From SAR324 cluster bacterium (lineage in GTDB: Bacteria; SAR324; NAC60-12), in contig JAKUUI010000003.1 in the NCBI GenBank assembly GCA_022448485.1, positions 3,156 through 67,155 on the forward strand: a stretch of 64,000 nucleotides of DNA. Direction: 5' to 3'. Below are positions 4,770 to 25,242 of the stretch, in pieces. The notes beneath the pieces were generated by a model that was not told where the DNA came from, searched no databases, and saw only the letters and a program-made list of their open reading frames with translations. The position numbers and the translations under genes were made by a program. The stretch's first letter is position 1; the number at the start of each line of letters is the position of its first letter.

Positions 4770-5585
4770 TTAACGCAAATATAGCTGATCCAATACAAAT
4801 TCCAAATTGTTTACTCCCAAAGAAATCAAGTCTTGGGATCTGCCAATTATTTCTCCTGGAACAGACTGAAATGGCTGATTATTTTTATCAGTAAGAATTC
4901 GGAGGGAATATTTTCCACTCAGAGTTTGACCTCCCATCGCGTTTGATTGACCAATGCTGAATTTTTGAGGAAAATTAAATTTTTCCAACATTTTGATGGC
5001 CACAGGGCGTCCCTTTTTAGGATCAAACAGCATGATCACTAGCCGATCTTCTGAGTCCACTTGGTCCAAGAACTTTGGGTGTACGGTGATGATTCCGCGG
5101 ATGCTGGTCTTAGGAGAGTCTGTTGAAAAAGCCAATAGTTCTGCGGGAAGCCTTATAAAAGGACGATCCATATAATACTCAACCCTCTCTGTTCCCAAAG
5201 GAATTGAAGGTGTAAGCTGCCCGATGACTTCTCCAGGTGAAGAACGATTTGGATTCCCGTCTTTGTCTGTGAGTACAAGCAGTCGATAAGCTCCTCTGAG
5301 CGGGCGACTGGTGTCAGCTTGTCCAACACTGAATGTTAATGGAGGTAAAAAAGGGTTGATAATTTGTGAAGCTACCAGTTCAAGCGTTTTCGGATCAAAA
5401 AGCAAAACATGAGCATTGTCTGTTTTTATAATTCCTCCACCAACTCCGTTAGCTGAAAGAATGACTCCGCTGATGCTATACTCTAATTTAGTAGCATTGC
5501 GACTTAATTCGTTCCATAGCGCTGAAACCGTCAAACCAACAAAACCAACGAATGCGGACCAAAAAATGAGTTTATTTTTACTCAC
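4770..5585 (-). CDS. Membrane-anchored hypothetical protein with an internal tandem duplication
   Basis: 271 aa with an N-terminal TM segment (LIFWSAFVGFVGLTVSALW). Two ~105-aa repeats share LFDPK...F(S/T)(I/V)GQ...Y.L..LTDK...P....PGE(I/V)IG...(I/S)(P/S)LG...(V/L)E(Y/F). Confidence 0.6.
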   Translation of the reverse strand: MSKNKLIFWSAFVGFVGLTVSALWNELSRNATKLEYSISGVILSANGVGGGIIKTDNAHVLLFDPKTLELVASQIINPFLPPLTFSVGQADTSRPLRGAYRLLVLTDKDGNPNRSSPGEVIGQLTPSIPLGTERVEYYMDRPFIRLPAELLAFSTDSPKTSIRGIITVHPKFLDQVDSEDRLVIMLFDPKKGRPVAIKMLEKFNFPQKFSIGQSNAMGGQTLSGKYSLRILTDKNNQPFQSVPGEIIGRSQDLISLGVNNLEFVLDQLYLR

Positions 5586-5607
5586 AAAAATTTAGTTTGA
5601 ACAATTG

Positions 5608-7125: not shown

Positions 7126-7157
7126 TTGCGTTAAATTTTCAGAGAGTGTAATTTTTC

Positions 7158-10100
7158 TCAGGCCGCTTTGTTCTTCAATGATTCCAATACGGCACGGTAT
7201 TCAATTGGCATCACTTTTACAAACTGCAGCAACACTTCATCCCATTTTCCCAATAATTGTGTAGCCCGCACACTTCCTGTGTATTCCAAATGACGTTCGA
7301 TCCACTTCCGAAGCCATAACTTTTCTTCAGTATCACTAACATTTTCCAGGGTAACCATTTCGGAATTACAATTAGACTCAAACTTCTGATTTTCGTCCAA
7401 AACATAAGAAATTCCCCCGCTCATGCCAGCAGCAAAGTTTTTCCCAGTTTCTCCAAGGACAATTACATTTCCGCCTGTCATATATTCACAACCGTGGTCA
7501 CCAACACCCTCGACCACCGCTGTTGCCCCACTGTTTCGGACAGCAAACCGTTCCCCGGCTATGCCGCAGAAAAACACTTCACCTCCGGTGGCGCCATAAA
7601 GAACAGTATTACCAATCAGAATATTTTCATCAGCATTGAACGTTGATTTTTTGGGAGGATAAATAATCAATCGCCCTCCGCTCAAACCTTTTCCAGTATA
7701 ATCGTTGGCATCCCCCTCGAGCTCGAGAGTAACTCCGTGAGCCAAAAACGCACCGAAACTCTGTCCAGCAGATCCTAGAAACTTGCAATGAATAGTGTTA
7801 TCCTTCAACGCTTTTGCTCCGTATTTCTTGGCAATTTCACTACTTAACATAGTCCCAACCGAACGGTTAACATTGAAGATCGGCAACGAAAAATTAACAG
7901 CCTTTTCGTATTGTAGAGCAATTTTAGATTCCTTAATTATCTTATGATCTAGTTGTTTGTCCAGTCCGTGATCTTGTTTCTGGGTACAAAAACGAGTATC
8001 ACCCTTTCCTAATGGAATCTGATGCAGTATTGTCGATAAATTCACTTTCTCAGCTTTCCAATGTTTTATGTTCGTGCGTTGCTTCAACATGTCGGTACGT
8101 CCAACCATTTCATCGACTCTTCGAAAACCCAGCTCGGCCATCAATTTTCGGAGTTCTTCTGCAACAAAAAAGAAATAGTTGATGACGTGTTCCGGCTGTC
8201 CAGTAAACTTTTTGCGCAATTCCGGATTCTGAGTGGCAATACCAACCGGACAGGTATTGAGGTGACATTTGCGCATCATAATGCAGCCAATTGCAATCAA
8301 TGGAATTGTCGCAAAACCATACTCTTCCGCACCCAACAAAGCAGCAACCGCCACGTCCCGTCCAGTTTTAAGTTGTCCATCAATTTGCAAACGTACCCGT
8401 CCACGCATATGATTCAGCATCAATGTTTGCTGAGCCTCGGAAAGCCCCAGTTCCCACGGAACTCCAGCGTGTTTTATTGAAGTCAGTGGAGATGCACCTG
8501 TTCCACCATCATGTCCAGCGATGGTGATAATGTCAGCGTGAGCTTTTGCGACTCCCGCAGCAATGGTTCCAACTCCTGCTTCTGCAACTAGTTTTACGTT
8601 GACATTAGCTTTTGGATTTGCATTTTTCAGATCAAATATCAGTTGTGCTAAATCTTCAATTGAATAAATATCATGGTGCGGTGGCGGCGAAATCAGCGTC
8701 ACTCCGGGAATAGAATTGCGAACTTTTGCAATTTCTTCACTGACTTTTTCCCCGGGTAATTGTCCTCCTTCTCCTGGCTTTGCGCCCTGTGCAATTTTAA
8801 TTTGGATTTCAGTGCAATTGACCAGATAGTGGATTGTGACGCCAAAACGACCGGAAGCAACTTGCTTAATGTTGCTAATTGGCCAATCACCATTGGCTCG
8901 TTTTTCGAAACGTTCGGAGTCTTCACCACCTTCTCCACTGTTACTTCTCGCACCAATACGATTCATAGCAATCGCAAGAGTTTCATGAGACTCTTTGCTG
9001 ATAGATCCAAATGACATAGCTCCAGTGACAAAACGTTTGACGATATTCTCAGCTGGTTCGACTTCATCAAGCAAAATTGGAGTCCCATCTGCAAACTCAA
9101 TTAAACTCCTTGGTGTTGAAAAACGATGAGCTTGATCGTTGACGAGACGTGAGAATTCATCATATGCGTCCAAGCTATTTTTACGAACAGCTCTCTGCAA
9201 AGTGTTCGTCATCACCGGATTGATTTGGTGAAATTCTCCTCGTCTTCGCCAATTATAAAAACCTCCACCAGAAAGTATTACACTTGTATCCGGAGGTTCC
9301 ACCAAAGCCGATTCATGCCTCAATAAGGTTTCCTGCGCTATTTCCGGTAAACCGATACCGCTTATTCTGGATGGAGTACTTGTAAAATAATTTTGAACCA
9401 GATCTTCATCTAAACCAATTGCTTCAAATATTTGTGCACCGCGGTAGCTTTGAATTGATGAAATACCCATTTTAGAGAACACTTTATACATTCCCTTACG
9501 AATGGCCTTATAATAATTCTTATTAGCCTTTTCCAAGGTCAGTTCTTTCGGTAAGGCTTTTTGTTGAATCATTTGATCAAAAGTTTCAAACGCCAAATAC
9601 GGATTTATAGCCCCTGCCCCGTAGCTCACAAGTAAACAAAAATGTGCAATTTCCCTTGCTTCTCCAGTTTCGACAACTATTCCTGTTTTATAGCGTATTC
9701 GTTTCAGCATCAGGTGATGGTGAACTGCTCCTACTGCCAATAAGGCTGGAATCGGAGCTTGATCCTTCCCAGCACCACGATCACTTAAAACAAGTATAGC
9801 GGAGCCGGATTTCACTGCACTTTCCGCTTCATTACAAAGTTGTTTGAGCGCTTTGGAAAATCCGTCTGTACCTGATTCAGCCTCAAATAGCATTCTTAAA
9901 GTTGTCGATCGGAAATCCTTTTTGTCTAGTTCTTTAATTTGTACAAGTTGTTCGTTACTCAGAATTGGATGGAGGAGTTTAAGCATTCGGGCGTGTTTGG
10001 GACCAGGATTAAGAATATTTTTTTCTGGTCCCAACCGGCTAGTAAGTGACATCACCAATTCCTCTCTGATGGCATCAACTGGAGGATTGCTCACTTGCGC

Positions 10101-11657
10101 AAAAATTTGTTTGAAATAATCGTAAAGCAACCGAGGTCTATCCGACAACACAGCCAGCGGTGTATCGTCACCCATTGAACCGGAAGCTTCTGTACCATTT
10201 GTCACCATTGGTGTCAATAATAGGTTAAGATCTTCAGTTGTGTAACCAAAAATCTTCTGCCGTAACAACAGTGATTCGAAATCAGTATCCGGAATTTTAG
10301 TTGGTTTTGGCAAATCTGACAATTCTATGACATTGTCTCTTATCCATTGTGAATAAGGTTGAGCACTACAAATTTTAGATTTCAGTTCTGCATCATCTAT
10401 TATCCGTCCCTCTTTGGTATCAACTAGAAACATCTTTCCAGGCTGTAAACGGCCTTTGTATTTTATATTTTCCGGAGCAACATCAACTGCCCCTACTTCT
10501 GACCCCATGATAACCAAATCATCTCTTGTTACGACATAACGAGAAGGGCGTAATCCATTGCGATCTAGAGTCGCTCCAATTTGAATTCCGTTTGAAAAAG
10601 TGATAGATGCAGGCCCATCCCATGGCTCCATCAAGTGTTCGTGGAATTCATAAAAAGCTTGTTTTTCTGGAGTCATCTCTGGATTATGCTCCCATGCTTC
10701 TGGAACCATCATCATCATAGCATGAGGAAGAGAATATCCTGATTGAATCAAGAATTCGAAAACATTGTCCATGCAGGCGGAATCGCTGCCTCTTGGTATA
10801 ATAATGGGCTGCAGCTCACTAATATCTTCATATAAAGGAGACTCTAAAGTCGCGCGCCTGCCCCGCATCCAGTTGATATTACCACGCAATGTGTTGATTT
10901 CTCCATTGTGAGCCAAGTTTCGGAAAGGCTGAACCAAATCCCAACGGGGAAAGGTATTAGTTGGGAAACGGGTGTGAATTAAAGCCAGTGCGCTAGTCAA
11001 TCTGGAATCCGACAAATCCGGAAAAAAGTCTCCCATTTGATGTGGAATCAACATACCTTTATACACAATTGTTCGCGAAGACATGCTGGTAATCATGAAA
11101 CCCTCAACATCTTTTAGTGACGAACGAATGGCTTTTCGGGTTACATACAATTTCCTTTCAAATCTATCCTGATTATAATTTTCTAACCTCCGATGCCCCA
11201 TGAATAACTGGCGCATAGTTGGCATCGCAGCAAGAGCCTGTTTACCCACGAATCCAAGATCGATCGGAACATCACGCCACCCCAGCAAATCCATCCCTTT
11301 TTCAACAATATGGCTTTCTATCACCTCCCCGCAATGCCTCCTGGCATAAGGATCCTGCGGAAAAAAAATTGAGGCTATTCCATACTCTCCGGATTCCGGC
11401 AAGTAAAATCCGGAACCTTGACATTCTTCAACAAAAAATTGATGGGGAATTTGAATCATAATTCCGGATCCGTCACCTGTGTCCCGATCTGCGCCAAGTG
11501 CTCCACGGTGATTCAGATTGCAGAGTAAACGCAGTCCTTGCTGCACTATTTGGTGAGATTGAAGGTTTTTAATCTGCACCACAAATCCCACGCCACAGTT
11601 ATCGTGCTCAAATTGGGGATCGTAAAGCCCCTGTTTTTCAGGAAATTGATACTTCAT
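7158..11657 (-). CDS. gltB: Glutamate synthase large subunit
   Basis: 1499 aa. The N-terminal amidotransferase Cys is in HDNCGVGF. The central FMN and Fe-S domains and the C-terminal GXGXG-type domain are all present. Confidence 0.95.
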   Translation of the reverse strand: MKYQFPEKQGLYDPQFEHDNCGVGFVVQIKNLQSHQIVQQGLRLLCNLNHRGALGADRDTGDGSGIMIQIPHQFFVEECQGSGFYLPESGEYGIASIFFPQDPYARRHCGEVIESHIVEKGMDLLGWRDVPIDLGFVGKQALAAMPTMRQLFMGHRRLENYNQDRFERKLYVTRKAIRSSLKDVEGFMITSMSSRTIVYKGMLIPHQMGDFFPDLSDSRLTSALALIHTRFPTNTFPRWDLVQPFRNLAHNGEINTLRGNINWMRGRRATLESPLYEDISELQPIIIPRGSDSACMDNVFEFLIQSGYSLPHAMMMMVPEAWEHNPEMTPEKQAFYEFHEHLMEPWDGPASITFSNGIQIGATLDRNGLRPSRYVVTRDDLVIMGSEVGAVDVAPENIKYKGRLQPGKMFLVDTKEGRIIDDAELKSKICSAQPYSQWIRDNVIELSDLPKPTKIPDTDFESLLLRQKIFGYTTEDLNLLLTPMVTNGTEASGSMGDDTPLAVLSDRPRLLYDYFKQIFAQVSNPPVDAIREELVMSLTSRLGPEKNILNPGPKHARMLKLLHPILSNEQLVQIKELDKKDFRSTTLRMLFEAESGTDGFSKALKQLCNEAESAVKSGSAILVLSDRGAGKDQAPIPALLAVGAVHHHLMLKRIRYKTGIVVETGEAREIAHFCLLVSYGAGAINPYLAFETFDQMIQQKALPKELTLEKANKNYYKAIRKGMYKVFSKMGISSIQSYRGAQIFEAIGLDEDLVQNYFTSTPSRISGIGLPEIAQETLLRHESALVEPPDTSVILSGGGFYNWRRRGEFHQINPVMTNTLQRAVRKNSLDAYDEFSRLVNDQAHRFSTPRSLIEFADGTPILLDEVEPAENIVKRFVTGAMSFGSISKESHETLAIAMNRIGARSNSGEGGEDSERFEKRANGDWPISNIKQVASGRFGVTIHYLVNCTEIQIKIAQGAKPGEGGQLPGEKVSEEIAKVRNSIPGVTLISPPPHHDIYSIEDLAQLIFDLKNANPKANVNVKLVAEAGVGTIAAGVAKAHADIITIAGHDGGTGASPLTSIKHAGVPWELGLSEAQQTLMLNHMRGRVRLQIDGQLKTGRDVAVAALLGAEEYGFATIPLIAIGCIMMRKCHLNTCPVGIATQNPELRKKFTGQPEHVINYFFFVAEELRKLMAELGFRRVDEMVGRTDMLKQRTNIKHWKAEKVNLSTILHQIPLGKGDTRFCTQKQDHGLDKQLDHKIIKESKIALQYEKAVNFSLPIFNVNRSVGTMLSSEIAKKYGAKALKDNTIHCKFLGSAGQSFGAFLAHGVTLELEGDANDYTGKGLSGGRLIIYPPKKSTFNADENILIGNTVLYGATGGEVFFCGIAGERFAVRNSGATAVVEGVGDHGCEYMTGGNVIVLGETGKNFAAGMSGGISYVLDENQKFESNCNSEMVTLENVSDTEEKLWLRKWIERHLEYTGSVRATQLLGKWDEVLLQFVKVMPIEYRAVLESLKNKAA

Positions 11658-12438
11658 AAAAATACGTCTGATTATTGATTCGGTAATGAACCTTTTACTC
11701 GCCCTTCCTACGAAAAATTGTATCCATAGTCCTGAATCGAGAGTGTTTCGTGTGCATGCCTAGGAAGTCCAGTCTTTATTTAGTGTTTTACTACTTTTGT
11801 TGAAACAGCTATTTTTGGATGCTGATAAAAGTATTAACATTGCTCCTAAACTCTTTATTCCCAGTTTTTACTTCCCCATGTAAAGCTCTGACAGCCCCCA
11901 TTTATTTCCTGTCCTCGACAGGCTATATACCTTCCAAAAGCTGTAAGTCTTGGCAGGTGTCTTCCGCAAGAAGCAGATAATTTTTATTTTCTCAACTTCC
12001 TTCAGCTGCTCCCCTTAACCACGAACACCCGCATTGTCAGTCTTTTATGCTAAGTCCACAACTCCTTTGACGAAGGCTTAGAGCTGTCATAACCCATCCC
12101 AAGCCGTATTTGTTAAAATCCAAAAAAGAGGCTGTAAAAAAAGAACCCAACCACTATAAAAACAATGGTCATAACAGTACAACCACCCCATTGTTTTGCG
12201 ACTGAACAGGTTTTATGTTTTCCTAATCTCTTATCAAGAAATTCTCGAAAAAGCTTACACTTCTTTGTAGCACTGATTATTATTTCGCTACAATAGGGGC
12301 CTTGCTATGTATCTTCAATTTCAATTCATTTTTTAATGCATATCCCCGCAGGAATGTAGCATAATAAACGATCCTAATCAAGTTTGTTTGATCCCGAGAC
12401 AACCGGGGACACCTGCAGTCAGTTCGTCAAACAGACCT

Positions 12439-14208
12439 TCAGTGCTCCAGTTCTGGTGTTTTGATACGGTTGATAATTTGCTGTTGGGCAATCGATAGGA
12501 TATTGCTTGTCACCCAATACAATGTCAAACCAGATGGAAAGGTAAAAGTGAAAATTGTAAAAATGAACGGTAGCATTTGCATGATTTTCGCCTGAGTGGA
12601 GTCCATCATCGCCGTTTGAGGTGTCATTTTTTGTTGAATGTACATAGACGCTCCCATCAGCAAAGGTGTGATTCCCAAGCCATCAGGTTGTGACAAGTCA
12701 CCTATCCAAAAGATAAAAGGTGCATGCCGCAATTCCACGGCACTTGAAAGTGAACTATACAGCGCAAAAAACACTGGGATCTGGAGCAGCAACGGCAAGC
12801 AACCACCAAGCGGATTGACCTTGTTTTTTCGGTACAGTTCCATCATTTCTTTGTTCAGCTTTTCTTTGTTGTTCTTGTACTTTTCCTGCAGTTTCTTCAT
12901 TCTTGGAGTCAACTGTTGCATTCGCTTCATGCTTTTCATGCCCTTGAAAGTCAGAGGGAACAAAACTATACGTACTATAATTGTCAAAATGATGATGGCA
13001 ACCCCGTAGTTTCCAACATAACCGAAAATCAGTCGAAGTAAATCCAGCAGTGGTCCAGCCAGTACTTCCAAGGTCATATCATGCGACATTACCAGTTTGT
13101 GCCCAAATTTCATTAACTCTTCATCTTCTTTCGGACCATAAAACATTCTAAAATCTGACTCAACGAGGAGGCTTGGCTGCAAATTCGTCGGTGGTAGAGC
13201 TACACCAAAATACGGAGACAATTTTCTCTCTCCCTGCTGATTTGGCTGGAGTTCAGATAAGTACGCTCCTGCCCGAAAAAAACCATTCCTCACCGGAGTC
13301 ATAGGAACTGCCGCACCAATAAAATATTGATCTTCCACACCTAACCATTTCATCTGAGTTACAGTAAGCTCATTTTCAATGTTCTCAGTACTTTCAGTTT
13401 GAAGACTTTCATCGAAAAAGAATACTGGACCTTCGTGAGAAACTTGTTGCATTCCGCCAGCGCTATCTGCAAGCCGCTGTTCTCCAAAAAAATAGAGTAC
13501 CTCCAAAGGGCGGATTTCATTGGAACGATTGATCAGCTGCACACGATAATTCAGTATATAGTTGTCTGGACTTGCTTCGAAAATCTTGACCAGCTGGAGC
13601 CCGTTTACTATGGGTGAAGTTAGAGTCAGTGTGACATTCCCTTCTCCTTCCTCCTGTACAACATGATCTTCGCTGCTAGCAAATACTGCATTGCGAAACA
13701 TGGCTGTAGTCTTTGTGTCACCTTTAAACTCATGAGCAAAAGCGGGTGCTTCCTCCAAATGATTCCCGAACATCTGTACACGGTTAGATTCTGTGATTTC
13801 GTCGCGAAAATCGGGACCAATAAAACTGGTCAGAAATGGAAACCAGGTACTCAAAGTGAGGCGGGGCTTTGTATGTTTAAAATGCTTTAACTGCAGACTT
13901 TTCCCAATTCCACCTCGAGTGTCTAAAACAAGACGGTAATTGTCTGTTTCAATGATTACTTCCTTGGAAGGCAAACTGCTGTCAACTTCCTTAATTGAAG
14001 ACAAAGGAGTAGCTGATGGAAGAATAGAATCTTCAACTTTTAGTTCATTCGATTCTGGTCTGATAGAATTTTTTGTCCTATCGGTTAGTTCCTGATCTAC
14101 GGTCTTTACTACTTCAGGCGGAAGCGGCTCCGGTGGAGGAAAAAGAGCATACCAGCCAACCATGATGGCACCAGAAAGAACTACTGCCAGTAAAGTGTTT
14201 TTATCCAT
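12439..14208 (-). CDS. yidC: Membrane protein insertase YidC (long form with periplasmic P1 domain)
   Basis: 589 aa. It has an N-terminal TM segment, a large periplasmic region and the C-terminal Oxa1-like core (GNYGVAIIILTIIVR...LPLLLQIPVFFALY). It lies downstream of yidD-rnpA-rpmH. Confidence 0.93.
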   Translation of the reverse strand: MDKNTLLAVVLSGAIMVGWYALFPPPEPLPPEVVKTVDQELTDRTKNSIRPESNELKVEDSILPSATPLSSIKEVDSSLPSKEVIIETDNYRLVLDTRGGIGKSLQLKHFKHTKPRLTLSTWFPFLTSFIGPDFRDEITESNRVQMFGNHLEEAPAFAHEFKGDTKTTAMFRNAVFASSEDHVVQEEGEGNVTLTLTSPIVNGLQLVKIFEASPDNYILNYRVQLINRSNEIRPLEVLYFFGEQRLADSAGGMQQVSHEGPVFFFDESLQTESTENIENELTVTQMKWLGVEDQYFIGAAVPMTPVRNGFFRAGAYLSELQPNQQGERKLSPYFGVALPPTNLQPSLLVESDFRMFYGPKEDEELMKFGHKLVMSHDMTLEVLAGPLLDLLRLIFGYVGNYGVAIIILTIIVRIVLFPLTFKGMKSMKRMQQLTPRMKKLQEKYKNNKEKLNKEMMELYRKNKVNPLGGCLPLLLQIPVFFALYSSLSSAVELRHAPFIFWIGDLSQPDGLGITPLLMGASMYIQQKMTPQTAMMDSTQAKIMQMLPFIFTIFTFTFPSGLTLYWVTSNILSIAQQQIINRIKTPELEH

Positions 14209-15646: not shown

Positions 15647-15673
15647 TAAAGAAAATTGCTCAGATTCCGATAT
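15647..15673 (+). promoter_or_regulatory. Second, weaker sigma-28-like promoter upstream of flagellin 1
   Basis: TAAA(15647-15650)-N15-TCCGATAT(15666-15673). The spacing matches the consensus, but the -10 element deviates at two positions. Confidence 0.3.
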
Positions 15674-15730: not shown

Positions 15731-15757
15731 TAAAGAAATATGTCTATCTGCCGATAA
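15731..15757 (+). promoter_or_regulatory. Sigma-28 (FliA) class-3 flagellar promoter of flagellin 1
   Basis: TAAAGAAA-N11-GCCGATAA, that is TAAA(15731-15734)-N15-GCCGATAA(15750-15757). It matches the TAAA-N15-GCCGATAA consensus exactly and lies 45 nt upstream of the ATG at 15802. Confidence 0.8.
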
Positions 15758-15801
15758 GAGGGCAAGAGAACCTTTACTAGGACACTTAAGAGTTAATAAT
15801 C

Positions 15802-17571
15802 ATGGCATTGCGAGTCAACTCAAATATTGCGGCATTGAACGCGCTGAGGCACCTGCAGCAGACAGAGCAGGAATTGGGGAAAAACCTGGAGCGCTTGTCT
15901 TCCGGCCGCAAGATCAATCATGCTGCTGACGGACCAGCATCGCTTGTGATTTCTGAACAGATGAAAACACAGATTTCAGGGCTCGGACAGGCAATTCGCA
16001 ATTCCGAATCATCCATTTCAATGATTCAGACCACAGAAGGTGCATTAAATGAGGTGAGTAACATTTTAATAAATTTACGTCAACTAGCTGTGCATGCTGC
16101 TAATGAGGGTACAAATGACGAAAAAATGCTCCAGGCAGACCAAAATGAGGTTAATAACTTAATCTCTACATTGAGAAATATCGCCAAGAACACTCAGTTT
16201 GGAACAAGAAATTTGCTTGACGGAAGTAATTCAGCTACTGGTGTTGCAATTGGAAACAATCTGGAATTTGTTTTTGCATCTGACGAGGCAAAATCTTCTC
16301 CGTCAAACGGATTTAAAGTTGATATCACACAGGTAGCAACTCGTCCGATGATGATTGCTACACGCCGGTTAAGTCTTGAAGATGTTTCATCATCAGATCC
16401 GAATAATGATTTTTCTTTTGTTATAAATGAAGGGGGTCGCACTGTTTCTGTGGATCTGAAAAACAACAATGATTTACGTGAGACAATCGAAAAATTGGCT
16501 ACCTCTGCAATAAGAAACGGAACTCCGGAAGCAAAGATAAGGACTGAACGTGCCATACAACAGTTGATTGCATTCGAAATGCAGAGACTGGCAGATGAAG
16601 CAAACATGGACCTGGACATTTTTGTTTATCGTCCTGCGGACAATTTGGGACCATTTCTCGAAAACTTCGATACCTTGAATGATACATTGACAGAAATTGC
16701 GAGAACGCTAGGGGCACTAGAAGAGATCAGCGATGTTCTTGGAAGCGCTGACGAGGTGATTGTGATGAGGCACCGTCAATTCGGGAGTGAGCCAAATTTC
16801 ACTGTTTCTTCAACTTTGGAAAACTATTTTGGCGAGAATATACAAGCAAACGAAGCTGTTTTTGCTATTCCGGGACGTGATGTGGAAGGCACAATAGGCG
16901 GATACCCTGAGGTTGACGGAGGAGGTGCAGCCATGGGCAAAGGGCAGTTTCTTACTGGAGCACCCGGCGCAGAAGCAGAGGGAGTCACGGTAAAATACGG
17001 TGAGACAACGGACGATGTAATTTACGAGATTGCTAACCGTTCTGATAATCGGGTATCAGGAACGTTCAAACTGGAGCAGAACAATGATAGCTTAGTTGGT
17101 GAAGATGTGGACGGATTTGTACATGTATCACAAAATTCTCTTGCTTTTCAAATTGGCCCGAATCAAGGACAACTAAGACGAATTTCAGTTGACAGCATGA
17201 GTCCGGAACAGCTCTCAAATGGAGTAGAAAATGACAGCAATTTTCATAGTTTGGCCGAAATTGATGTGCTGGACGCAGATGCAGCTCAAGATGCTTTGCT
17301 GTTGATTGATCAAGCTATTGATGATGTTTCCACTATGCGTGGAAATCTTGGTTCATTCCAGAAAAATGCTTTGGAAGCAAATTTACACGGCTTGCGTGTC
17401 TCAAAGGAAAACTTGACTGCTTCGGAATCTCAGTTAGCAGATACCGACATGGCACAAGAGATGAGTTCATTGGTCAAAAATCAAATATTGCTTGCTTCTG
17501 GAACAGCTATGCTGGCGCAAGCCAATCAGGTCCCGCAGTCCGTTATACAGTTGCTCAATGCAAACGGCTGA
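15802..17571 (+). CDS. fliC: Flagellin (589 aa, large variable central region)
   Basis: Conserved N-terminus (MALRVNSNIAALNALRHLQQTEQELGKNLERLSSGRKINHAADGPA) and C-terminus (DTDMAQEMSSLVKNQILLASGTAMLAQANQVPQSVIQLL), with about 350 aa of non-conserved central sequence. Confidence 0.93.
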   Translation: MALRVNSNIAALNALRHLQQTEQELGKNLERLSSGRKINHAADGPASLVISEQMKTQISGLGQAIRNSESSISMIQTTEGALNEVSNILINLRQLAVHAANEGTNDEKMLQADQNEVNNLISTLRNIAKNTQFGTRNLLDGSNSATGVAIGNNLEFVFASDEAKSSPSNGFKVDITQVATRPMMIATRRLSLEDVSSSDPNNDFSFVINEGGRTVSVDLKNNNDLRETIEKLATSAIRNGTPEAKIRTERAIQQLIAFEMQRLADEANMDLDIFVYRPADNLGPFLENFDTLNDTLTEIARTLGALEEISDVLGSADEVIVMRHRQFGSEPNFTVSSTLENYFGENIQANEAVFAIPGRDVEGTIGGYPEVDGGGAAMGKGQFLTGAPGAEAEGVTVKYGETTDDVIYEIANRSDNRVSGTFKLEQNNDSLVGEDVDGFVHVSQNSLAFQIGPNQGQLRRISVDSMSPEQLSNGVENDSNFHSLAEIDVLDADAAQDALLLIDQAIDDVSTMRGNLGSFQKNALEANLHGLRVSKENLTASESQLADTDMAQEMSSLVKNQILLASGTAMLAQANQVPQSVIQLLNANG

Positions 17572-17710
17572 TTGGAATGTTTTTTGAAATGATTTCTTGT
17601 TGCCTGTTCGCTTTGAACAAGCAAAACAGAAATCTATGGCATATCAGTTAGTTGACTAAAATCAACTAGGCAAATAACTGTCCTTTTTCCCGGAGATTCA
17701 TCCGGAGTCG

Positions 17711-20700
17711 ATGGAACTGTATGCTTCAATAAACGGAACCGCCTTGGCAGAACTGAATCCGAATGCGATCACCGGCTTGGGGTCAAAGCTGAATACAAAG
17801 GAGATCATCGATCGCTTTATGGCTATCGAGCAGCGCCGGATCAAGCCTGTGGAGACTCGTAAAGAACAGAAAGTAAGTGAGCTGGAAGCTTGGGATGCTG
17901 TAAAAATGGAGTTAAAAAAGCTCCAGGGTGTAACCGAAGCACTGAACAAGTATGAAATTTGGGAGGCTCGGAAAGTAGAAACCAGTGATCCGGATGTTGT
18001 GGAACCGCAAGCGCGGAAAGATTCCGTGCCGGGGAGGCATACGATGATAGTGGAATCAGTGGCCTTGTCGCATCAAATAACTTCGCAAGGATTCGAGCGT
18101 GACGACGTCCGGATTGGTACTGGAAAGATCCAGATTCAGGTTGGAGACGATGAAGATGAGACGCCTGTCACAATCAATCTGGCTGAAGGTAAAGATACAC
18201 TAGTTGATTTGAAGCAGGCCATCAACAACTCTGACGCTGGGGTGGAGGCCTATATTGCAAAAACACATGGCGAAAACCCATTTAGGCTGCTTTTAACCAG
18301 CGACACGAAAGGTGAGCAAGGACGAATTAATATAGACGTAAATCTTAAAGGCGGAGAAGTTAGCGGGCCGAGTTATCTAAACACATTTGATAAAACTTCC
18401 ACCTGGAAGGGGCTTCAGGCTAAGGAAGCAAAAAAAGCAGCAGGTGCTGGATTTGGCGGTTCAACAAATATAGTTGAAGTGGGAGGAACGTACTCTGGAG
18501 AAGAAGACAACATCTTTACGTTTACTGTAGAGCGTGCCGGAATGATTCCTTCTGAAGCCGGTGTACTCATTGTCTGGAAGGATATAAACGGCCGAGAGGG
18601 TGAAATAGAGATCAATAAGTTTAATTATGTTCCCGGAAGCCCGCTTGACGTGACGGACGGATTAAAATTGTTGATTAGTGACGGTGAACTTGTAGGTGGT
18701 GACAACTTTACTGTTGATGTTTCTGCAGAAAAATCCGATATGCTGTGGTGGCTGAGCGACGCAGAGCGTGCACCACAAATTTCACAACCATCCGACTGGA
18801 GCAGTAAGGCGTCAGAAGGAGGTGTTCGAGTTACCGGTACATACGATGGATTAGAAGATGATACTATCATTTTTAGGGTGGAGGGCAATGGACAGGTTGG
18901 TGGCCCGAGTCCACTGAAATTGCATTACGAATATTCTGAAACTGGAGAAAAAGGTTCTGTCAATATTGGACACCCTTATCTTGGAGAAGTTGGTAAAGAA
19001 GGACCATTTGATCAGGCTACTGCTTTTGACTCTGAAGATGGTGAAGAACTCTTCGATTTGGAGTTCAGTAAGAAAGGCCGTCGTGACCCAAAGCGTCTGC
19101 CTCTGGGACATGGATTATTTGTAGAAGTGAATCCCAGTGTTTTAAGGGACGGGGATAGTACGGATGTGGATGTAATTGCTCCAACTTCAGAAGATATGTG
19201 GTGGAGCGACGATGAACATCGTGGTGTTTCTAATAAAATTGATGTTCAAGCAAAGTGGATGACCTACGATGAGTATGAAGGAATTGATGAAGACGTAACG
19301 AGAAGTAAACTCGACGTTTCTGCTGGAGTCTGGGGGGCGTCAGGAGGTCTTAGCAATGCTCCCATAGAAATATCCGGTACATTTGAACCGGATATCGCTA
19401 AAACATATACTTTTAGAGTTGAGAAGAGGGGTACTGTCGGTATCACACGTGGCCTACAATTGAGATGGGAAGATACGTTTGGCGGCAACGGTTCTGTAGA
19501 AGTGGGTGAGGGCTATATTCCTGGGACCCCAATATTATTTGATGAGGGATTAAGACTGGCCCTTGGAAAAGGTGGTTTATATCCAGATGATTATTTTACT
19601 ATCTCAACAGAGACTTCAACTGTCAGACTGGCTCAAGATTTAGTCTTACGCCTTGGAGCCACCAGAAGTGGAGAAGGCCTGGAGGTAAGGCGTTCGGAAA
19701 ATGTGGCAAATGATGTGATCCCTGGACTCGATCTGGAGTTTTTTTCGTCCAGTGATGAACCCGTAACTGTATCTGTATTGGGTGACACAGAGGTAGCTAA
19801 AGAGCGCATTCATGATTTTGTAGATGCTTACAATACATTTCAGGCAACTGCAAAAGAAGTGTCAAAGTACGACAAGTCGACAAACACGGCTGCGCCTTTG
19901 TTAAGTGACAGGAATCTGGCTCAGATGGTCAATGAAATTGCGAACACAACAATTGCAACCGTAAGTGGGTTGCCGCAGTCGACTAATATGCTTTTTTCTA
20001 TTGGCCTGAAAATCGATGATAGAGGCCAGATGTCTATTGAAGAGAAAAAATTAAACGAAAAGATAGTTGATGCTTTTTCTGATGTTGCTAATTTATTCCG
20101 GAGTCATGGAAAAACAGATAATCCCGGAGTAAGTTTTCTGGGAATGACTGAAAAAACTAGGGTCAATCCCAGCGGTTACCAAGTGGACGTCTCGAATGCT
20201 GCTGAACGCGGATTCTATTTGGGAACTCCACTCCCCGGAATTATAAGAGTTGATGATACAAACAATGTTTTAATTATTAAAAATAACGGCAGGGTATCTG
20301 ATCCGATTGAATTGCGCAAGGACAACTATACTCTCGGCAGTCTGGCCAAAACCATCCAGAACCGTTTGATGGAAGACAAAGTTTTGGGACGCCGTAGATT
20401 ACAGGTTCGTGAAGAAGAAGGAAGGCTGATGATAATTTCGGGGACTTATGGAAGCAGCAGTACAATTGAGGTGGAGCCCGGCCCAGATAAGGAACTCAGC
20501 GGTTTGGGGCTGACAGATGGTGTCAGCACTCCGGGAGAGGATGTTGCAGGATCAATCGGGAATGTGGAAGCAACAGGCAGAGGACAATTGCTTATGGGAG
20601 CGGAAGATTCCAATGCTGACGGTTTGAGATTGTTCGTGACACTTAGCGAAGACGACCTGGTTAAGGAACAAGAGGCTACTGTGAATATTTCCAAAGGTGT

Positions 20701-20959
20701 AGCTGTTAAATTAGGTCAGAAACTTGATAAATTGAATGATCCTCTGGATGGTAATGTCAAGCGGGCTACAGATGATATAACTGGACAAATGAGTAGTTTT
20801 GAGGAGCAAATAAGCCGCTTAAACGAACGGGCCGATACTAAGCGTTCAAGGTTGCAGAGTAAATTTGCAAAACTGGACAGCACTATGGGAAGATTAAAAT
20901 CCCAACAAAACTATATCAACCAGCAACTCTCCGCAATGAGCGGAGCTAATAAGTCCTAA
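17711..20959 (+). CDS. fliD: Flagellar filament cap protein FliD (HAP2), unusually long (1082 aa)
   Basis: FliD-type N-terminus (ITGLGSKLNTKEIIDRFMAIEQRRIKPVETRKEQKVSELEAW) and C-terminus (RLNERADTKRSRLQSKFAKLDSTMGRLKSQQNYINQQL). Gene order is flagellin-fliD-fliS. The middle of the protein contains three tandem repeats. Confidence 0.88.
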   Translation: MELYASINGTALAELNPNAITGLGSKLNTKEIIDRFMAIEQRRIKPVETRKEQKVSELEAWDAVKMELKKLQGVTEALNKYEIWEARKVETSDPDVVEPQARKDSVPGRHTMIVESVALSHQITSQGFERDDVRIGTGKIQIQVGDDEDETPVTINLAEGKDTLVDLKQAINNSDAGVEAYIAKTHGENPFRLLLTSDTKGEQGRINIDVNLKGGEVSGPSYLNTFDKTSTWKGLQAKEAKKAAGAGFGGSTNIVEVGGTYSGEEDNIFTFTVERAGMIPSEAGVLIVWKDINGREGEIEINKFNYVPGSPLDVTDGLKLLISDGELVGGDNFTVDVSAEKSDMLWWLSDAERAPQISQPSDWSSKASEGGVRVTGTYDGLEDDTIIFRVEGNGQVGGPSPLKLHYEYSETGEKGSVNIGHPYLGEVGKEGPFDQATAFDSEDGEELFDLEFSKKGRRDPKRLPLGHGLFVEVNPSVLRDGDSTDVDVIAPTSEDMWWSDDEHRGVSNKIDVQAKWMTYDEYEGIDEDVTRSKLDVSAGVWGASGGLSNAPIEISGTFEPDIAKTYTFRVEKRGTVGITRGLQLRWEDTFGGNGSVEVGEGYIPGTPILFDEGLRLALGKGGLYPDDYFTISTETSTVRLAQDLVLRLGATRSGEGLEVRRSENVANDVIPGLDLEFFSSSDEPVTVSVLGDTEVAKERIHDFVDAYNTFQATAKEVSKYDKSTNTAAPLLSDRNLAQMVNEIANTTIATVSGLPQSTNMLFSIGLKIDDRGQMSIEEKKLNEKIVDAFSDVANLFRSHGKTDNPGVSFLGMTEKTRVNPSGYQVDVSNAAERGFYLGTPLPGIIRVDDTNNVLIIKNNGRVSDPIELRKDNYTLGSLAKTIQNRLMEDKVLGRRRLQVREEEGRLMIISGTYGSSSTIEVEPGPDKELSGLGLTDGVSTPGEDVAGSIGNVEATGRGQLLMGAEDSNADGLRLFVTLSEDDLVKEQEATVNISKGVAVKLGQKLDKLNDPLDGNVKRATDDITGQMSSFEEQISRLNERADTKRSRLQSKFAKLDSTMGRLKSQQNYINQQLSAMSGANKS

Positions 20960-20981: not shown

Positions 20982-21449
20982 ATGAGTACCTATGGTAACT
21001 ACCAGAATGCCTATAAAAAGGCCTCTGTCAACACACTTGATCAAAATAAACTGATCATTATGCTCTATGATGGAGCCATAAAGAATGCCAGTTTTGCTGT
21101 TGAGCACATGAAATCAGAGGAAATAGAGAAGGTCCATGATTGTTTAATAAAAACTAAGAACATTGTGACCGAACTAATGGCAACCCTGAATATGGATCAT
21201 GGAGGTGATATCGCAAAAAATCTTCAGTCACTCTATAGCTACATGTTTAGCCAGCTGATTGAGGCAAACATGGAAAAAAAGCCTGAACCAGTTATTGTCG
21301 TAATAGATTTACTCAAGGAGTTGCGGGCGGCCTGGGTGCAAATTAATTCAAAAAAGAAACCAGGTGCAACAAAACAAAATGCTACTACACAAGGCATGAT
21401 GCAAAATAATCAGGAGAAAGCCGAGAAGCATATTAATGTGACGGGATAA
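20982..21449 (+). CDS. fliS: Flagellar export chaperone FliS
   Basis: 155 aa. YQNAYKKASVNTLDQNKLIIMLYDGAIK...LQSLYSYMFSQLIEAN is the FliS pattern. It lies directly after fliD. Confidence 0.88.
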   Translation: MSTYGNYQNAYKKASVNTLDQNKLIIMLYDGAIKNASFAVEHMKSEEIEKVHDCLIKTKNIVTELMATLNMDHGGDIAKNLQSLYSYMFSQLIEANMEKKPEPVIVVIDLLKELRAAWVQINSKKKPGATKQNATTQGMMQNNQEKAEKHINVTG

Positions 21450-21642: not shown

Positions 21643-21815
21643 AAAATAGAATAAATTCAAGTTAAAGCCAAAGGATAGCAAACTGCTATTTTTTGGCTTT
21701 GTTGTCTAAAGTATTGATTCAGCAGGAATAACCCGGCTGCAAACTGCACATGTGGGCCGCAACTGTTTGAGTTGCAGGTGTTTCTGAGGCATGTACTGTT
21801 TGTCAGCTGGGTTTT
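21643..21815 (+). repeat. Repeat family R1, copy 1 (two-hairpin element)
   Basis: By eye about 80-85% identical to 22951..23120. Hairpin 1 is 21664-21700 (AAAGCCAAAGGATAGCA/TGCTATTTTTTGGCTTT). Hairpin 2 is 21731-21812: outer stem CCCGGCTG/CAGCTGGG, middle stem GCACATG/CATGTAC, inner stem GCAACT/AGTTGC. Confidence 0.85.
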
Positions 21816-21935
21816 ACCTCAGAAGAAAAAACGAACTTTTGGTTTGAGATTGTTCTAACATAGTGTGACTGGAATTAATGTAGCAGCAAATTAGGCCGTG
21901 AAAATACTGCCTTAATTTAAAAAAATTATAAGAGA

Positions 21936-22562
21936 ATGGGTAATTGGCATGAGGCTGAGGTATCTTTGCGCCAGGCGGACTCTATAATTGCCGGAATAAT
22001 TGAACATACCGGGCCTTGTGAATTGATAAAGCATGAAGGAGGATTTGCCGGGTTGGCAAGTTCCATCATTGGACAGCAACTCTCAAATCAAGTTGCAAAA
22101 ATAATCCGGGCAAGGTTCCGGAAGCTCTTTGAAAATGAACTGCCTGATCCCAGGTATTTACTGAAACTAGATGATTCTGTCTTGAGAAAGGCAGGATTGT
22201 CTTTCCAGAAAATCAAATACCTGCGTGGTTTGGCGCAATGGTTGGATAGTGGTGAGCTGGATTTTTCTGCATTGGCAAAGATGGATGACGAAATTGCAAT
22301 TCAGCAACTTGTCCTAGTGAAAGGCATTGGACGCTGGACTGCTGAAATGTATTTAATGTTCAGCTTGAATCGTCCGGATCTGTTGCCTTTGGATGATGCG
22401 GCTCTTGAGGCCGCATTGAAACGGCTCTATGATCTTCCGGAAAAAGGTTGGAAAGAGCTGGCTGTTTCGATTGCAGAAAAATGGAGACCGTGGCGGACTG
22501 TAGCTTGCTGGTATCTCTACCGATATCACAAATTGGTGAAAAACGGAGAGGCTCCGTTCTGA
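21936..22562 (+). CDS. DNA-3-methyladenine glycosylase II-like (HhH-GPD family, AlkA-like)
   Basis: 208 aa. HhH motif LVKGIGRWTAEMYLMF followed by the Asp-containing LLPLDD, and a C-terminal WRPWRTVACWYLY. Confidence 0.78.
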   Translation: MGNWHEAEVSLRQADSIIAGIIEHTGPCELIKHEGGFAGLASSIIGQQLSNQVAKIIRARFRKLFENELPDPRYLLKLDDSVLRKAGLSFQKIKYLRGLAQWLDSGELDFSALAKMDDEIAIQQLVLVKGIGRWTAEMYLMFSLNRPDLLPLDDAALEAALKRLYDLPEKGWKELAVSIAEKWRPWRTVACWYLYRYHKLVKNGEAPF

Positions 22563-22574
22563 AATCTCCATCTT

Positions 22575-22945
22575 GTTGAAATTAGAGGGCTACTTAATTG
22601 GTGGGAACCTCTGTTGATCTTTGAAAATTGAATAATCAACTAATCCTCATGCGGGAATCCCTGTCAAATGGGATAAACGCCAGCTGCTTAGCAAACCAGG
22701 CCGGTGGGCTATATTTTTCTGAATATAACTGTTCGGATCAATGTGTCTTCACTACATCCTGAAAATCTACTGCAGCAGGAGTGTTGTTTTTCATACTGCG
22801 GCCTGTGATTATGCGGTTAGTTGCTACATGACGGAAGTAGAAAACGAACATTTTACTCTGAAGCAAAATGCCAGATGATGGCCCTTTGCTTGGATAGTCA
22901 GGTGAAGAATTGGATCTTGAATAGAAAACCAATCACTGAAAAGAC
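22575..22945 (+). repeat. Repeat family R2, copy A: conserved intergenic module plus a decayed, truncated 5' fragment of a DUF1835 gene
   Basis: Aligns with 24040..24420. Shared blocks are GTTGAAATTAGA, TTAATTG, TCTGTTG.TCTT.GAAAATT, GTCAA, CTATATTTT and TTCGGAT.AATGT. From ATG 22741 the sequence is homologous to the DUF1835 N-terminus (SV...D.A; LHDG), with at least one frameshift. Homology stops where R1 copy 2 begins. Confidence 0.75.
22688..22715 (+). promoter_or_regulatory. Putative sigma-70-type promoter inside R2 copy A
   Basis: TTAGCA-N16-TATATT. The equivalent position in R2 copy B carries TTGAAT-N18-TATATT. Confidence 0.3.
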
Positions 22946-22950
22946 CCTAC

Positions 22951-23120
22951 AAATAGAAACAAAGCTAAAGCCAAAGTATAGCTCACTGCTATACTTTGGC
23001 TTTGTTGTTTAACAAATTGGATCAAGCCAGAATTACCCGGCTGCAAGCCGCACATGTTGGCCGCAACTGTTTTGAGTTGCAGCTTTTTCTGAGGCATGTG
23101 CTGTTTGTCAGCCGGGTATT
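22951..23120 (+). repeat. Repeat family R1, copy 2
   Basis: Hairpin 1 is 22967-23003 (AAAGCCAAAGTATAGC/GCTATACTTTGGCTTT, perfectly paired). Hairpin 2 is 23035-23117 (CCCGGCTG/CAGCCGGG, GCACATG/CATGTGC, GCAACT/AGTTGC). The stems are better paired than in copy 1. Confidence 0.85.
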
Positions 23121-23520
23121 ATCCGGCAGATAAAATTGTCAGGGAGAAATATGTCTGCTCGGCAATGGATTGAAATAGATAGTTATATAGAAAATTGTTG
23201 AGATGCCCTGCAATACTATTTAAAGCTGTTTTTAGGTGTTAACTGCTAAGAACTGAGCCTACCAACAATTGGGAAAGTTAGAAGCATAGAGCCTGGTTGT
23301 CCAAGTGCCTGACTCATGCTGGTATGGTTTTGGGTGCTTGACCTGACCAACTTCATTTTGCTATAAAAGCAAATAGATTTACGGCTTGATGTGAGATTTA
23401 TGGTTTGCACCGTCGATGGAATTAGTACTTTATCTTGGATTGTTGTAAGTATAAAAGTAGGTTGATTTAGGCCTTGTGAACTGAGCCTGTAAAAACCGTA
23501 ATTTAATTGGAGCGTGATTT

Positions 23521-24008
23521 ATGAAAATATACGTAGGAACATTGTCTCCAGATGACGGCCAAGAGTGGAAAAATTTATATCGTGGATATGCCGAGTTTCA
23601 CTATGATCCCATGAATAACGAAATTCTCGACACTGTCTGGAATTAGATTTTTGATGAAGACGAAGCATTCTATGATTTGGTAGCTAATAATGAAGAGAAG
23701 CGTCCTGTCGGTCTCATGCACTTCCGGGAAATGGCCTCACCTTTAAGAGGCAAAAATGTAGGTTTTTTAGATGACCTTTTTGTAGTCCCTCGGAGTCACG
23801 TGGAACAGGAGTAGAAGGCGAAATGTTTCAAAAATTAACTGCGAAATCCACCGACAATGGATGGCCTTTTGTGCGCTAGATAAAGGCGGAAGACAACTAT
23901 CGTGGCCGAGGTGTTTATGATCGAATCGCTGAAAATACAAAATAGGTGACATACCAACATGAATGTTTGATCTCAAAATCTTTGTTGCTGTCACAAAACG
24001 TCCGATGA
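23521..24008 (+). pseudogene. GNAT-family N-acetyltransferase, disrupted by three in-frame TAG codons and one frameshift
   Basis: My translation is MKIYVGTLSPDDGQEWKNLYRGYAEFHYDPMNNEILDTVWN*IFDEDEAFYDLVANNEEKRPVGLMHFREMASPLRGKNVGFLDDLFVVP, then a frame change near 23790, then ESRGTGVEGEMFQKLTAKSTDNGWPFVR*IKAEDNYRGRGVYDRIAENTK*VTYQHE... The TAGs are at 23644, 23877 and 23943. GNAT motif A (RGTGVG-like) is present. Confidence 0.7.
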
Positions 24009-24039
24009 AGACAGAGTGGTGCTGCCTAAATAATATACT

Positions 24040-24420
24040 GTTGAAATTAGAACCTTTTTTAATTGAATGAGGTTCTGTTGCTCTTGGAAAATTTAATCAG
24101 GTACATCTCCGCTCGTGGAGAACTCCGTCAAGAACGGCCTTCACTGAATATTGAATGAACAAAGCGGGTTGGACTATATTTTGTCTATAAGATATTCTTT
24201 CGGATAAATGTTTTTCAACACTGGTGAAATCAGTTTTGAGGAGAGTGTCTTGCTGTATATTGTGAGTGGAGATTGCGCCATCGAAGCATTAAGAGATTCC
24301 GAAATTGAAGGGGATTTTCCTTCCTAGATGGTTGTACTTCATGATGGACCCGTGCCTGAAGGACTGCGTCTTGAGGAACTCTCTAATATTCGAGCTAAGT
24401 TCATTGCAGAATGTGATTGG
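24040..24420 (+). repeat. Repeat family R2, copy B (intergenic module plus the 5' end of the full-length DUF1835 gene)
   Basis: See copy A. Hairpin AGAACCT/AGGTTCT is at 24049-24076 and the palindrome GGAGAACTCC is at 24117-24126. The distance from GTTGAA to the ATG is 168 nt, against 166 nt in copy A. Confidence 0.75.
24151..24180 (+). promoter_or_regulatory. Putative sigma-70-type promoter inside R2 copy B (upstream of the DUF1835 gene)
   Basis: TTGAAT-N18-TATATT, with the -10 element ending 28 nt before ATG 24208. Confidence 0.3.
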
Positions 24421-25242
24421 GATTCTCTTGAAAATGCTAAGGACTCTTTTCGGAAAATGGACCTTGTTTTCCATAATTGTCACAAATACGACGAAGTGGT
24501 ACTTTGGAACAGCTTTGAATTGTTCGATCAGCTTCATCTGCTGCAGTTGTTAGATTGTTTTGCCTACAAGCAGGAAGTCTCTCAGCGCTTGAGTATTATT
24601 TTTATTGATGAGTACCTGTGGCAGGCTACTTCTGAGTCCCAGCTGGAGAGGCTTGGAAAGAGAGAACCAGTTTCTGAAAAACAACTCGTTCTTGGACAAC
24701 TTAGCTGGACTGCTTTTACTGCTCCAACACCTGAATTGATGCTTGAACTGATGCAGGAATGCACCTCGGTTTTACCATTTTTGCAGAACGCACTGTTCCG
24801 CCTTTTTGAGGAATTTCCCGCAGAGTGGAGCGGTCTGCCCCAGACAGAGCATTGCATTTTAGAGCAAGTAAGAGGTGGAATCTCCTAGCTCGTCAGTTTG
24901 TTTTCTGCAGTTCAAGCAGAGGAACCGGCCCGTTTTATGGGGGATTGGTCTTTTTGGAAACGCGTGCGCAGGCTCGTAGAATCTCCTCGGCCATTATTGG
25001 AATTGGAGGGCGATGTCCATTTTTATGAACCTCCAAAGACTCCTTTTCCTGATCCGGTTTTCGGGAAATTTGATGCTCAGGTGACAGGTTTAGGAATTGA
25101 GATCCTGGATAATAATGTGGATTGGCTCAGACAAAATCCACATGATTATTGGATTGGTGGGGTCCATCTTCATCCCGGTAATGATTGGAGATGGAATGCG
25201 GAGCGTATACAATTTTTAATAAAAGAACGGAGTTCTATGTGA
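24208..25242 (+). pseudogene. DUF1835/DUF3658-type protein gene: one reading frame interrupted by two in-frame TAG codons
   Basis: ATG 24208 gives MFFNTGEISFEESVLLYIVSGDCAIEALRDSEIEGDFPS, then TAG (24325-24327). Track ORF 24328..24888 follows, ending in TAG (24886-24888). Track ORF 24898..25242 continues in the same frame. Family hallmarks as I remember them are VVLWNSFELFDQLHLLQLLDCFA, LPFLQNALFRLFEEFP and FMGDWSFW. Confidence 0.65.

Follow-up and report, generated by a model that had tools for sequence, protein, structure and literature searches.

A duplicated two-hairpin element downstream of fliS in SAR324 bacteria is predicted to form a selected plus-strand RNA structure and may give rise to a 3'-end-derived small RNA

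What maintains a pair of similar, foldable intergenic segments beside a late flagellar operon? The question is raised by a 64,000-nucleotide stretch of DNA from a SAR324 cluster bacterium (positions 3,156 to 67,155 of contig JAKUUI010000003.1, assembly GCA_022448485.1; this whole stretch is referred to here as the window), in which an element that we term R1, composed of two hairpins (H1 and H2), occurs once past the flagellin chaperone gene fliS and again past the gene that follows. Comparative sequence evidence indicates that R1 is a plus-strand RNA structure maintained by selection and tied to fliS. Our preferred interpretation, to which we assign a probability of about 45%, is that R1 acts as a 3'-end module of the late flagellar fliD-fliS operon, in which a terminator hairpin is followed by H2, which probably yields a small RNA derived from the 3' untranslated region (UTR).

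The two copies of R1, located by blastn at 21659-21831 and 22962-23135, are direct repeats spaced by about 1.3 kb and share 82.9% identity over 175 nt (E 1e-45), in agreement with the original prediction of a ~170-bp two-hairpin element in two copies of roughly 80-85% identity. A repeat search resolved the same pair into three adjoining blocks of 81-90% identity (21659-21721/22962-23024, 21716-21768/23020-23072 and 21766-21816/23071-23121), and a 21-nt core pattern was matched twice, against 0.00 matches expected by chance. Neither BLAST nor a covariance model of H2 revealed a third copy in the window's own genome, a 2.7-Mb metagenome-assembled genome (MAG) that is 87% complete. The element had been said to match no RNA family that could be named, and the Rfam scan proposed at that time agrees: Rfam 15 gave no match at gathering score across the whole 64-kb window, while at E <= 10 it returned only chance-level microRNA and small nucleolar RNA matches far below threshold and no riboswitch family.

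Within the two copies, the following parts were delineated:
21664-21700, plus strand: H1 of copy 1, a terminator-type hairpin whose A/U-rich 17-bp stem, G-U pairs included, is capped by a 3-nt loop, with GTTGTCT after it.
21701-21730, plus strand: spacer of copy 1, weakly conserved and of lineage-variable length, holding the motif GCAGGAAT, which is similar to the -10 box of sigma-28 promoters.
21731-21815, plus strand: H2 of copy 1, with base stem ACCCGGCUG/CAGCUGGGU, a middle stem, apical stem GCAACU/AGUUGC and a UUUU run; covariance-model score 111.4 bits.
21777-21789, plus strand: conserved unpaired segment GGUGUUUCUGAGG on the 3' side of the large internal loop of H2 in copy 1, with invariant columns; a candidate recognition or seed site.
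22967-23003, plus strand: H1 of copy 2, a perfect 16-bp stem capped by a 5-nt loop, with GTTGTTT after it; its score is terminator-like on both strands.
23035-23122, plus strand: H2 of copy 2, with a UAUUAU tail and the conserved loop GCUUUUUCUGAGG at 23082-23094; covariance-model score 113.4 bits.

The stem of 16-17 bp anticipated for H1 was recovered as arms of 17 nt in copy 1 (21664-21680/21684-21700), which are 88% complementary as DNA and fully paired once G-U is allowed, and as arms of 16 nt in copy 2 (22967-22982/22988-23003), which are 100% complementary. As had been noticed at the outset, copy 1 reads GG opposite TT (two G-U pairs) where copy 2 reads GT opposite AC (G-C and U-A); at alignment columns 16/35 and 17/34 one pair is thus altered on one side and the other on both. 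The predicted H2, about 82 nt with three nested stems, was likewise found at 21731-21812 and 23035-23117. It comprises ~82-88 nt folded into three helices and two internal loops above a G+C-rich base, and its large internal loop holds the 11-nt conserved segment UGUUUCUGAGG. The minimum free energy of the whole element was -68.1 kcal/mol for copy 1 (z = -5.3) and -87.0 kcal/mol for copy 2 (z = -9.8), and none of 200 shuffled sequences folded as well. Both hairpins, placed after fliS or after the HhH-GPD glycosylase gene, take the form of intrinsic terminators, that is, a stem-loop plus a U-run 3' of a gene: the GGG (or its variant) at the base of H2 leads directly into TT(T/A)T in 25 of 26 distinct tails, and a consensus terminator scan flagged H1 of copy 2 (17 pairs, tail TTGTTT). 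A small open reading frame (ORF) within H2 was considered and rejected: in copy 1 an 18-codon frame starts at the ATG of GGCATGT, but the genome G001 has a stop after 4 codons, and single-base indels fall inside H2.

To which strand, and to which molecule, does this structure belong? A consensus fold built on 19 copies from 12 genomes contained 44 pairs, with 95.4% of the cells paired. Fourteen of these pairs were altered on both sides, as compared with 3.5 +/- 1.4 in shuffled controls (n = 500), none of which reached 14, and sliding the 3' partner by 1-3 columns lowered the pairing to 37-45%. In a wider set of 59 distinct H2 copies, 93.8% of the cells were paired and the variation proceeded mainly through G-U intermediates (C-G, U-G and U-A at one pair). 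The claim that the G-U pairs are meaningful for a plus-strand RNA only is borne out by the strand test, which counted 113 G-U cells, able to pair only on the plus strand, against 8 A·C cells, able to pair only on the minus strand; the paired fraction was 95.4% on the plus strand versus 82.9% on the minus strand. Consistently, 35 of the 38 per-copy hairpin folds (17/19 for H1 and 18/19 for H2) were more stable on the plus strand by at least 1.5 kcal/mol, and the covariance model scored 111-113 bits on that strand and 26 on the other.

Selection on the element was gauged by p-distances across 45 species pairs, with the H1 loop, the spacer and the 4-fold degenerate sites of the adjacent fliD and fliS genes as the neutral yardstick; the values hold for both copies. 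The yardstick gave 0.55 for the H1 loop, 0.51 for the 4-fold sites and 0.38-0.41 for the spacer (0.38 in copy 1). The stems diverged far less, by 0.11-0.17 in H1 (0.17 in copy 1) and 0.11-0.18 in H2, and so did the 33 unpaired positions of H2 (0.17-0.18). On this comparative evidence H1 behaves as an ordinary intrinsic terminator-type hairpin, with a constrained stem, a neutral loop and a U-rich tail, and H2 qualifies by its form, a G+C-rich base and a U-run, as a second terminator-type 3' end. The fliC-fliD intergenic region had been tried as a further neutral control and was dropped, being itself conserved and structured:
17572-17710: fliC-fliD intergenic region, with several conserved hairpins, among them a long GATTTCT...AGAAATC and a terminator-like GGCA...TGCC+TTTTT.
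This region may itself be another structured RNA region.

Where R1 resides was then read from its relatives, for which the genes of the locus serve as landmarks:
17711-20959: fliD (Pfam FliD_C/FliD_N), upstream of fliS.
20982-21449, plus strand: fliS, encoding the flagellin chaperone (Pfam FliS, 8.4e-38), with copy 1 of R1 in its 3' region.
21936-22562, plus strand: HhH-GPD (AlkA-like) DNA glycosylase gene (Pfam HhH-GPD, 5.5e-12), between the two R1 copies.
The covariance model of H2, run on 88 genomes of the phylum, matched 12 of the 18 genomes of the window's genus and, more weakly, one genome of another genus (G021). Of the genomes in the window's genus, 13 carry fliS and 12 of these carry the element, the contig of the thirteenth stopping 10 nt past fliS; the five genomes of the genus that lack fliS also lack the element. 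The order fliD-fliS, copy 1, HhH-GPD glycosylase, copy 2 was constant in the 12 genomes and in the metagenomic contigs, where all 70 loci from one scan presented the same arrangement on the gene-sense strand as far as each contig reaches. Throughout these genomes and loci, copy 1 began 32-215 nt past the fliS stop codon on the sense strand, the same two genes or their remnants occupied the same two slots, and the element was found in no other genomic context; each relative holds one or two copies, always at the same site.

The copies are not equally well preserved everywhere. In the two-copy loci both copies were strong in 21, copy 1 was weak in 4 and copy 2 in 8, and never both, a tally that is biased by a search pattern requiring at least one good copy. 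Decay is seen in copy 2 of G006 and five near-identical loci (67-70 bits) and in copy 1 of the locus L094 (50 bits). The glycosylase gene has itself decayed in several relatives, to remnants or to no ORF at all, and both R1 copies score 108-109 bits in the lineages where this intervening gene is no longer an ORF. One sub-lineage (L031, from G010, at 4394-4439, together with L119, L120 and L136) has an H1-like hairpin without H2 at the position of copy 2, and in the same loci H1 of copy 1 has diverged (CAGT/ACTG for TAGC/GCTA) and still pairs. At the start of the contig OFJF01000095.1 (L089, 1-193), a partial H2, comprising the 5' half up to CTGAGG, is fused to a spacer and a complete H2, with H1 replaced, the product of local rearrangement or else of a chimeric assembly.

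Two contigs binned outside the phylum also matched the model, CAZOYP010000119.1 (L047, a 'Nitrospinaceae' bin) and PBTS01000082.1 (L051, a 'Neomarinimicrobiota' bin). L047 carries the whole SAR324 locus, with fliS and HhH-GPD 94-96% identical to those of the window. Both are probably SAR324 contigs in the wrong bins. Contigs labelled 'Gammaproteobacteria' (L045), 'Hungatella' (L049) and 'Chitinophagales' (L052) failed the covariance model and were set aside, as were chance matches to the loop motif in G025 and G067, which have no flagellar context and no comparable fold, and in G029, which lies inside a coding region. As a separate observation, among the family's eleven genera with fliS, ten possess the tandem paralogues fliS and fliS2, and the window's genus has a single fliS with R1 in place of fliS2.

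The second genus offers an independent view of H2. In G021 its homologue lies about 250 nt past fliS2, and the next gene is a different one, encoding a 239-aa protein; the constant neighbour of H2 is therefore the upstream fliS and not the downstream gene. G021 retains 15 of the 27 modelled pairs unchanged; 7 are compensated by changes on both sides, 2 are altered on one side and 3 are broken. The loop UGUUUCUGAGG is identical between the two genera. No counterpart of H1 is evident upstream of H2 in G021, and H1 looks specific to the window's genus. In G031, of the same second genus, a weaker H2 copy occupies the same place and is followed by a separate canonical terminator hairpin. Taken together, the conservation of the unpaired bases, the identity of the loop across genera, the separate terminator of G031 and the persistence of strong copies despite glycosylase decay suggest that H2 does more than a plain terminator would.

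According to our preferred interpretation, H1 would stop most transcripts of fliD-fliS, while some fraction would read through and end at H2, and the H2-containing 3' fragment would persist as a discrete 3'-UTR-derived small RNA. The exposed loop of H2 could then serve as a recognition site for an mRNA or a protein and act in trans, which would couple some target to late flagellar gene expression; copy 2 would have come from an old segmental duplication that included a second repeat, R2, with both paralogues retained since. In a bolder form, which we offer as speculation and consider rather unlikely as it stands, H2 would be the founding member of an undescribed small RNA family of SAR324 flagellar operons, with two ancient paralogues and no Hfq or ProQ, whose loop UGUUUCUGAGG times or limits late flagellar assembly. 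Such an RNA might, for example, pair with a flagellar mRNA or titrate a regulator, by analogy with FlmE of Campylobacter.

Flagellar small RNAs of related kinds have been described elsewhere, namely the UTR-derived FliX and FlgO of E. coli (PMC10578931), FlaX from the flaA 3' UTR of V. cholerae (PMC11879080), and CJnc230/FlmE of C. jejuni, an organism without Hfq, in which the RNA is cut from the flgE mRNA by RNase III (PMC11187230). Like these, R1 lies on the sense strand immediately 3' of a flagellar gene of the late or middle class that encodes a structural protein or a chaperone, and H2 combines a terminator-type hairpin and U-run with a conserved single-stranded segment that is a candidate seed. 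The long, nearly double-stranded H2 would also be a plausible RNase III substrate, by analogy with CJnc230. As in C. jejuni, the window's genome encodes CsrA (contig C124, 21933-22094) and has no detectable Hfq or ProQ/FinO domain, a negative that is provisional at 87% completeness of the MAG. In contrast to those systems, with none of which it shares sequence or Rfam similarity, R1 has fliS and not a flagellin or hook gene as its parent gene, its candidate seed lies in an internal loop of the terminator hairpin and not 5' of it, and it exists as two old paralogues in two genera of an uncultured phylum.

Several observations weigh against a small RNA. The G-U bias and the covariation are equally expected of a working terminator hairpin and do not separate the two, and constraint on intergenic DNA is not unique to R1 here, since the neighbouring fliC-fliD intergenic region, rich in hairpins, likewise shows conservation across the genus (p-distance 0.21). 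The spread is narrow, covering two genera of one family, and the covariance model, at its full sensitivity, found no copy 3' of fliS in the nine remaining genera that carry this gene. Prediction of targets for the loop against 2,314 crude 5' regions did not exceed the extreme-value expectation (best -21.5 kcal/mol, about 2 such expected), and it gave nothing notable in flagellar genes. Lastly, there is no recognisable promoter between H1 and H2 and no conserved one in the spacer, which leaves H2 dependent on read-through of the terminator-like H1. The promoters of the window's flagellin gene provided the reference for this comparison:
15647-15673: second sigma-28-type promoter upstream of the flagellin gene, TAAA-N15-TCCGATAT.
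15731-15758: flagellin sigma-28 promoter, TAAAG-N14-GCCGATAA (TAAA-N15-GCCGATAA).
15802-17571: flagellin gene (589 aa; Pfam Flagellin_N/C).
The presence of two FliA-type promoters upstream of the flagellin gene implies that the organism uses the classical FliA consensus. The GCCGGAAT-like motif of the spacer has its nearest TAAA 11 nt upstream, as compared with 15 nt at the organism's own flagellin promoter, and the motif varies, as does the spacer itself, whose length differs by about 10 nt between lineages; a sigma-28 (FliA) promoter TAAA-N15-GCCGATAA for H2 was rejected on both the spacing and the variability of the motif. No sigma-70 site was found in the spacer of either copy, the whole region yielding 7 against 7.1 expected from shuffled sequences, and a sigma-54-like GG-N9-GC inside H2, judged by eye, also had the wrong spacing. 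The possibility of a CsrA sponge was discarded, as the H2 loops contain no GGA and the spacer has one in only about half of the copies.

Could the two hairpins be tandem intrinsic terminators and nothing else, a fail-safe stop that keeps the strongly expressed late flagellar operon (or, in the case of copy 2, the glycosylase gene) insulated from downstream accessory genes, with the shape and loop of H2 serving termination efficiency or 3'-end stability and not a function in trans? We regard this as the main rival and a serious one, though less probable than the preferred interpretation. U-runs on the gene-sense strand follow both hairpins, both sit just past a stop codon or a gene remnant, H2 has no evident promoter and no target was found, and the G-U bias and covariation fit equally well; H1, with its constrained stem and neutral loop, shows the pattern expected of a terminator. 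It is H2 that fits poorly. Intrinsic terminators need a far shorter hairpin than one of 82 nt with three helices and two internal loops, and a plain terminator needs no conservation of its loop, whereas the 33 unpaired positions of H2 are 3 times more conserved than neutral (0.17), with 11 of them identical in the other genus, and the loop of H1 evolves neutrally (0.55). Furthermore, G031 has its own canonical terminator past H2, and copy 2 stays intact where the gene upstream of it has decayed to nothing. A conditional version, in which H2 and its U-run form a cis-regulatory leader or attenuator of the downstream gene (HhH-GPD for copy 1, GNAT for copy 2) that would open when the loop is recognised by a protein or ligand, appears improbable to us. 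Each copy does have a same-strand gene 105-400 nt downstream, and the sequences show that GCCGG in the spacer could pair with CCGGC of the 5' base arm of H2. This alternative pairing is not conserved, however, the spacer reading GCAGG, GCCAG, GTAGG, GCCGA, GCCGT, GCTTG or TAAAG across copies and lying near neutrality (0.38-0.41); no riboswitch family was matched, and the downstream genes are unrelated (the glycosylase, GNAT, and the 239-aa protein in G021) and often decay while the element persists.

The original prediction had listed three candidate roles, a terminator plus a structured small RNA, a recombination site and a MITE-like element (MITE, miniature inverted-repeat transposable element). 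The first is favoured by the strand-specific pairing, the covariation, the selection and the U-runs, its small-RNA part being an inference; the other two found no support. A DNA-level role, with R1 and R2 as attC-like recombination or cassette-boundary sites, or as protein-binding operators, that bracket exchangeable cargo, is in our judgement very improbable. In its favour are the duplication of both R1 and R2 around two non-homologous genes and a 5.2-kb tandem duplication of the locus in G004, and R1 does share with integron attC sites, with repetitive extragenic palindromic (REP) sequences and bacterial interspersed mosaic elements (BIMEs) and with MITEs such as Correia elements the character of an imperfect palindromic intergenic repeat flanking a gene. 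Unlike all of these, R1 occurs as two copies per genome at constant syntenic, orthologous positions, its intervening genes show no turnover in the 12 genomes and 70 loci, and its pairing is that of strand-specific RNA; the 14-fold excess of G-U over A·C would be unexpected of an element working as DNA on both strands. Pfam analysis of the neighbouring genes revealed neither an integrase nor a recombinase in the locus, and the G004 junction falls outside R1. The evidence thus argues strongly against a cassette or recombination site. Hardly credible at all is a MITE-like mobile element or a functionless, neutral leftover of the duplication, even though the two direct copies lie only ~1.3 kb apart and some copies (the G006-type copy 2, copy 1 of L094) are visibly decaying. 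Terminal inverted repeats and target duplications were not seen, and the fixed position with no other context excludes a MITE. It had been proposed that, should no further copies exist, R1 would be only a duplicated intergenic segment: further copies are indeed missing from the 2.7-Mb genome even with the covariance model, but a mere duplicate is contradicted by the conservation of both copies across species while synonymous sites are near saturation (0.11-0.18 versus 0.51) and by the compensatory changes.

In the dark ocean, SAR324 ranks among the bacterial lineages of greatest abundance and, to our knowledge, it has no cultured representative; we found no report of RNA-based regulation in this group in the literature. 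R1, absent from Rfam, is by its sequence probably a terminator-associated, 3'-UTR-derived flagellar RNA, and it would constitute a well-supported candidate for a motility-linked RNA gene in SAR324, the support being comparative (pairing, strand bias, selection and occurrence in two genera). Should the small RNA be real, flagellar operons that make regulatory RNAs from their 3' ends would gain one more independent example, in an organism apparently without Hfq and ProQ. Should R1 be only an elaborate terminator, its interest would be modest, and it would still offer a clean case of a non-coding duplicate that was retained over the time in which synonymous sites became saturated.

How the two copies arose can be partly read from the locus. 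In a tree of the R1 copies, grouping followed the position across species and never the genome, so the duplication is older than the radiation of the genus and both copies have been kept without gene conversion. A second repeat accompanies the first:
22574-22744, plus strand: R2a, a duplicated intergenic segment that pairs with R2b at 73-76% identity (blastn).
24039-24211, plus strand: R2b, which matches R2a and lies 5' of the 186-aa ORF.
R2 follows each of the two genes that R1 precedes, which was verified at the repeat level and describes a two-unit duplication of the form R1-gene-R2. Conservation is weaker in R2 than in R1, and some lineages have only part of R2 or none of it. The glycosylase gene sits next to a GNAT gene in G021, and in the window's genus the two are separated by an R2+R1 junction; the present order would result if R1-glycosylase-GNAT-R2 had been duplicated in tandem and each unit had then lost one gene. 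A search for the corresponding gene remnants (of the glycosylase after copy 2, of the 186-aa ORF after R2a) returned only a 15-nt match (E 0.36) and weak similarities. A more recent event is seen in G004 (L028, G004:C43:76500-96000), where 3414-13944 holds a 5,217-bp tandem duplication of fliD' (from aa 47)-fliS-copy 1-HhH-copy 2. Its junction runs from past copy 2 into fliD, and the duplication could be real or an assembly artefact.

Past copy 2, the gene order in the window is a disrupted GNAT gene, ORFs of 186 and 114 aa that have no Pfam match, an intact GNAT gene and an M24 peptidase gene:
23518-23950, plus strand: disrupted GNAT acetyltransferase gene (stop-to-stop frames), 3' of copy 2.
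24328-24888: 186-aa ORF, downstream of R2b.
The GNAT fragments at 23518-23950 are broken by stops and frameshifts, and the same region is detectable by tblastn in most relatives.

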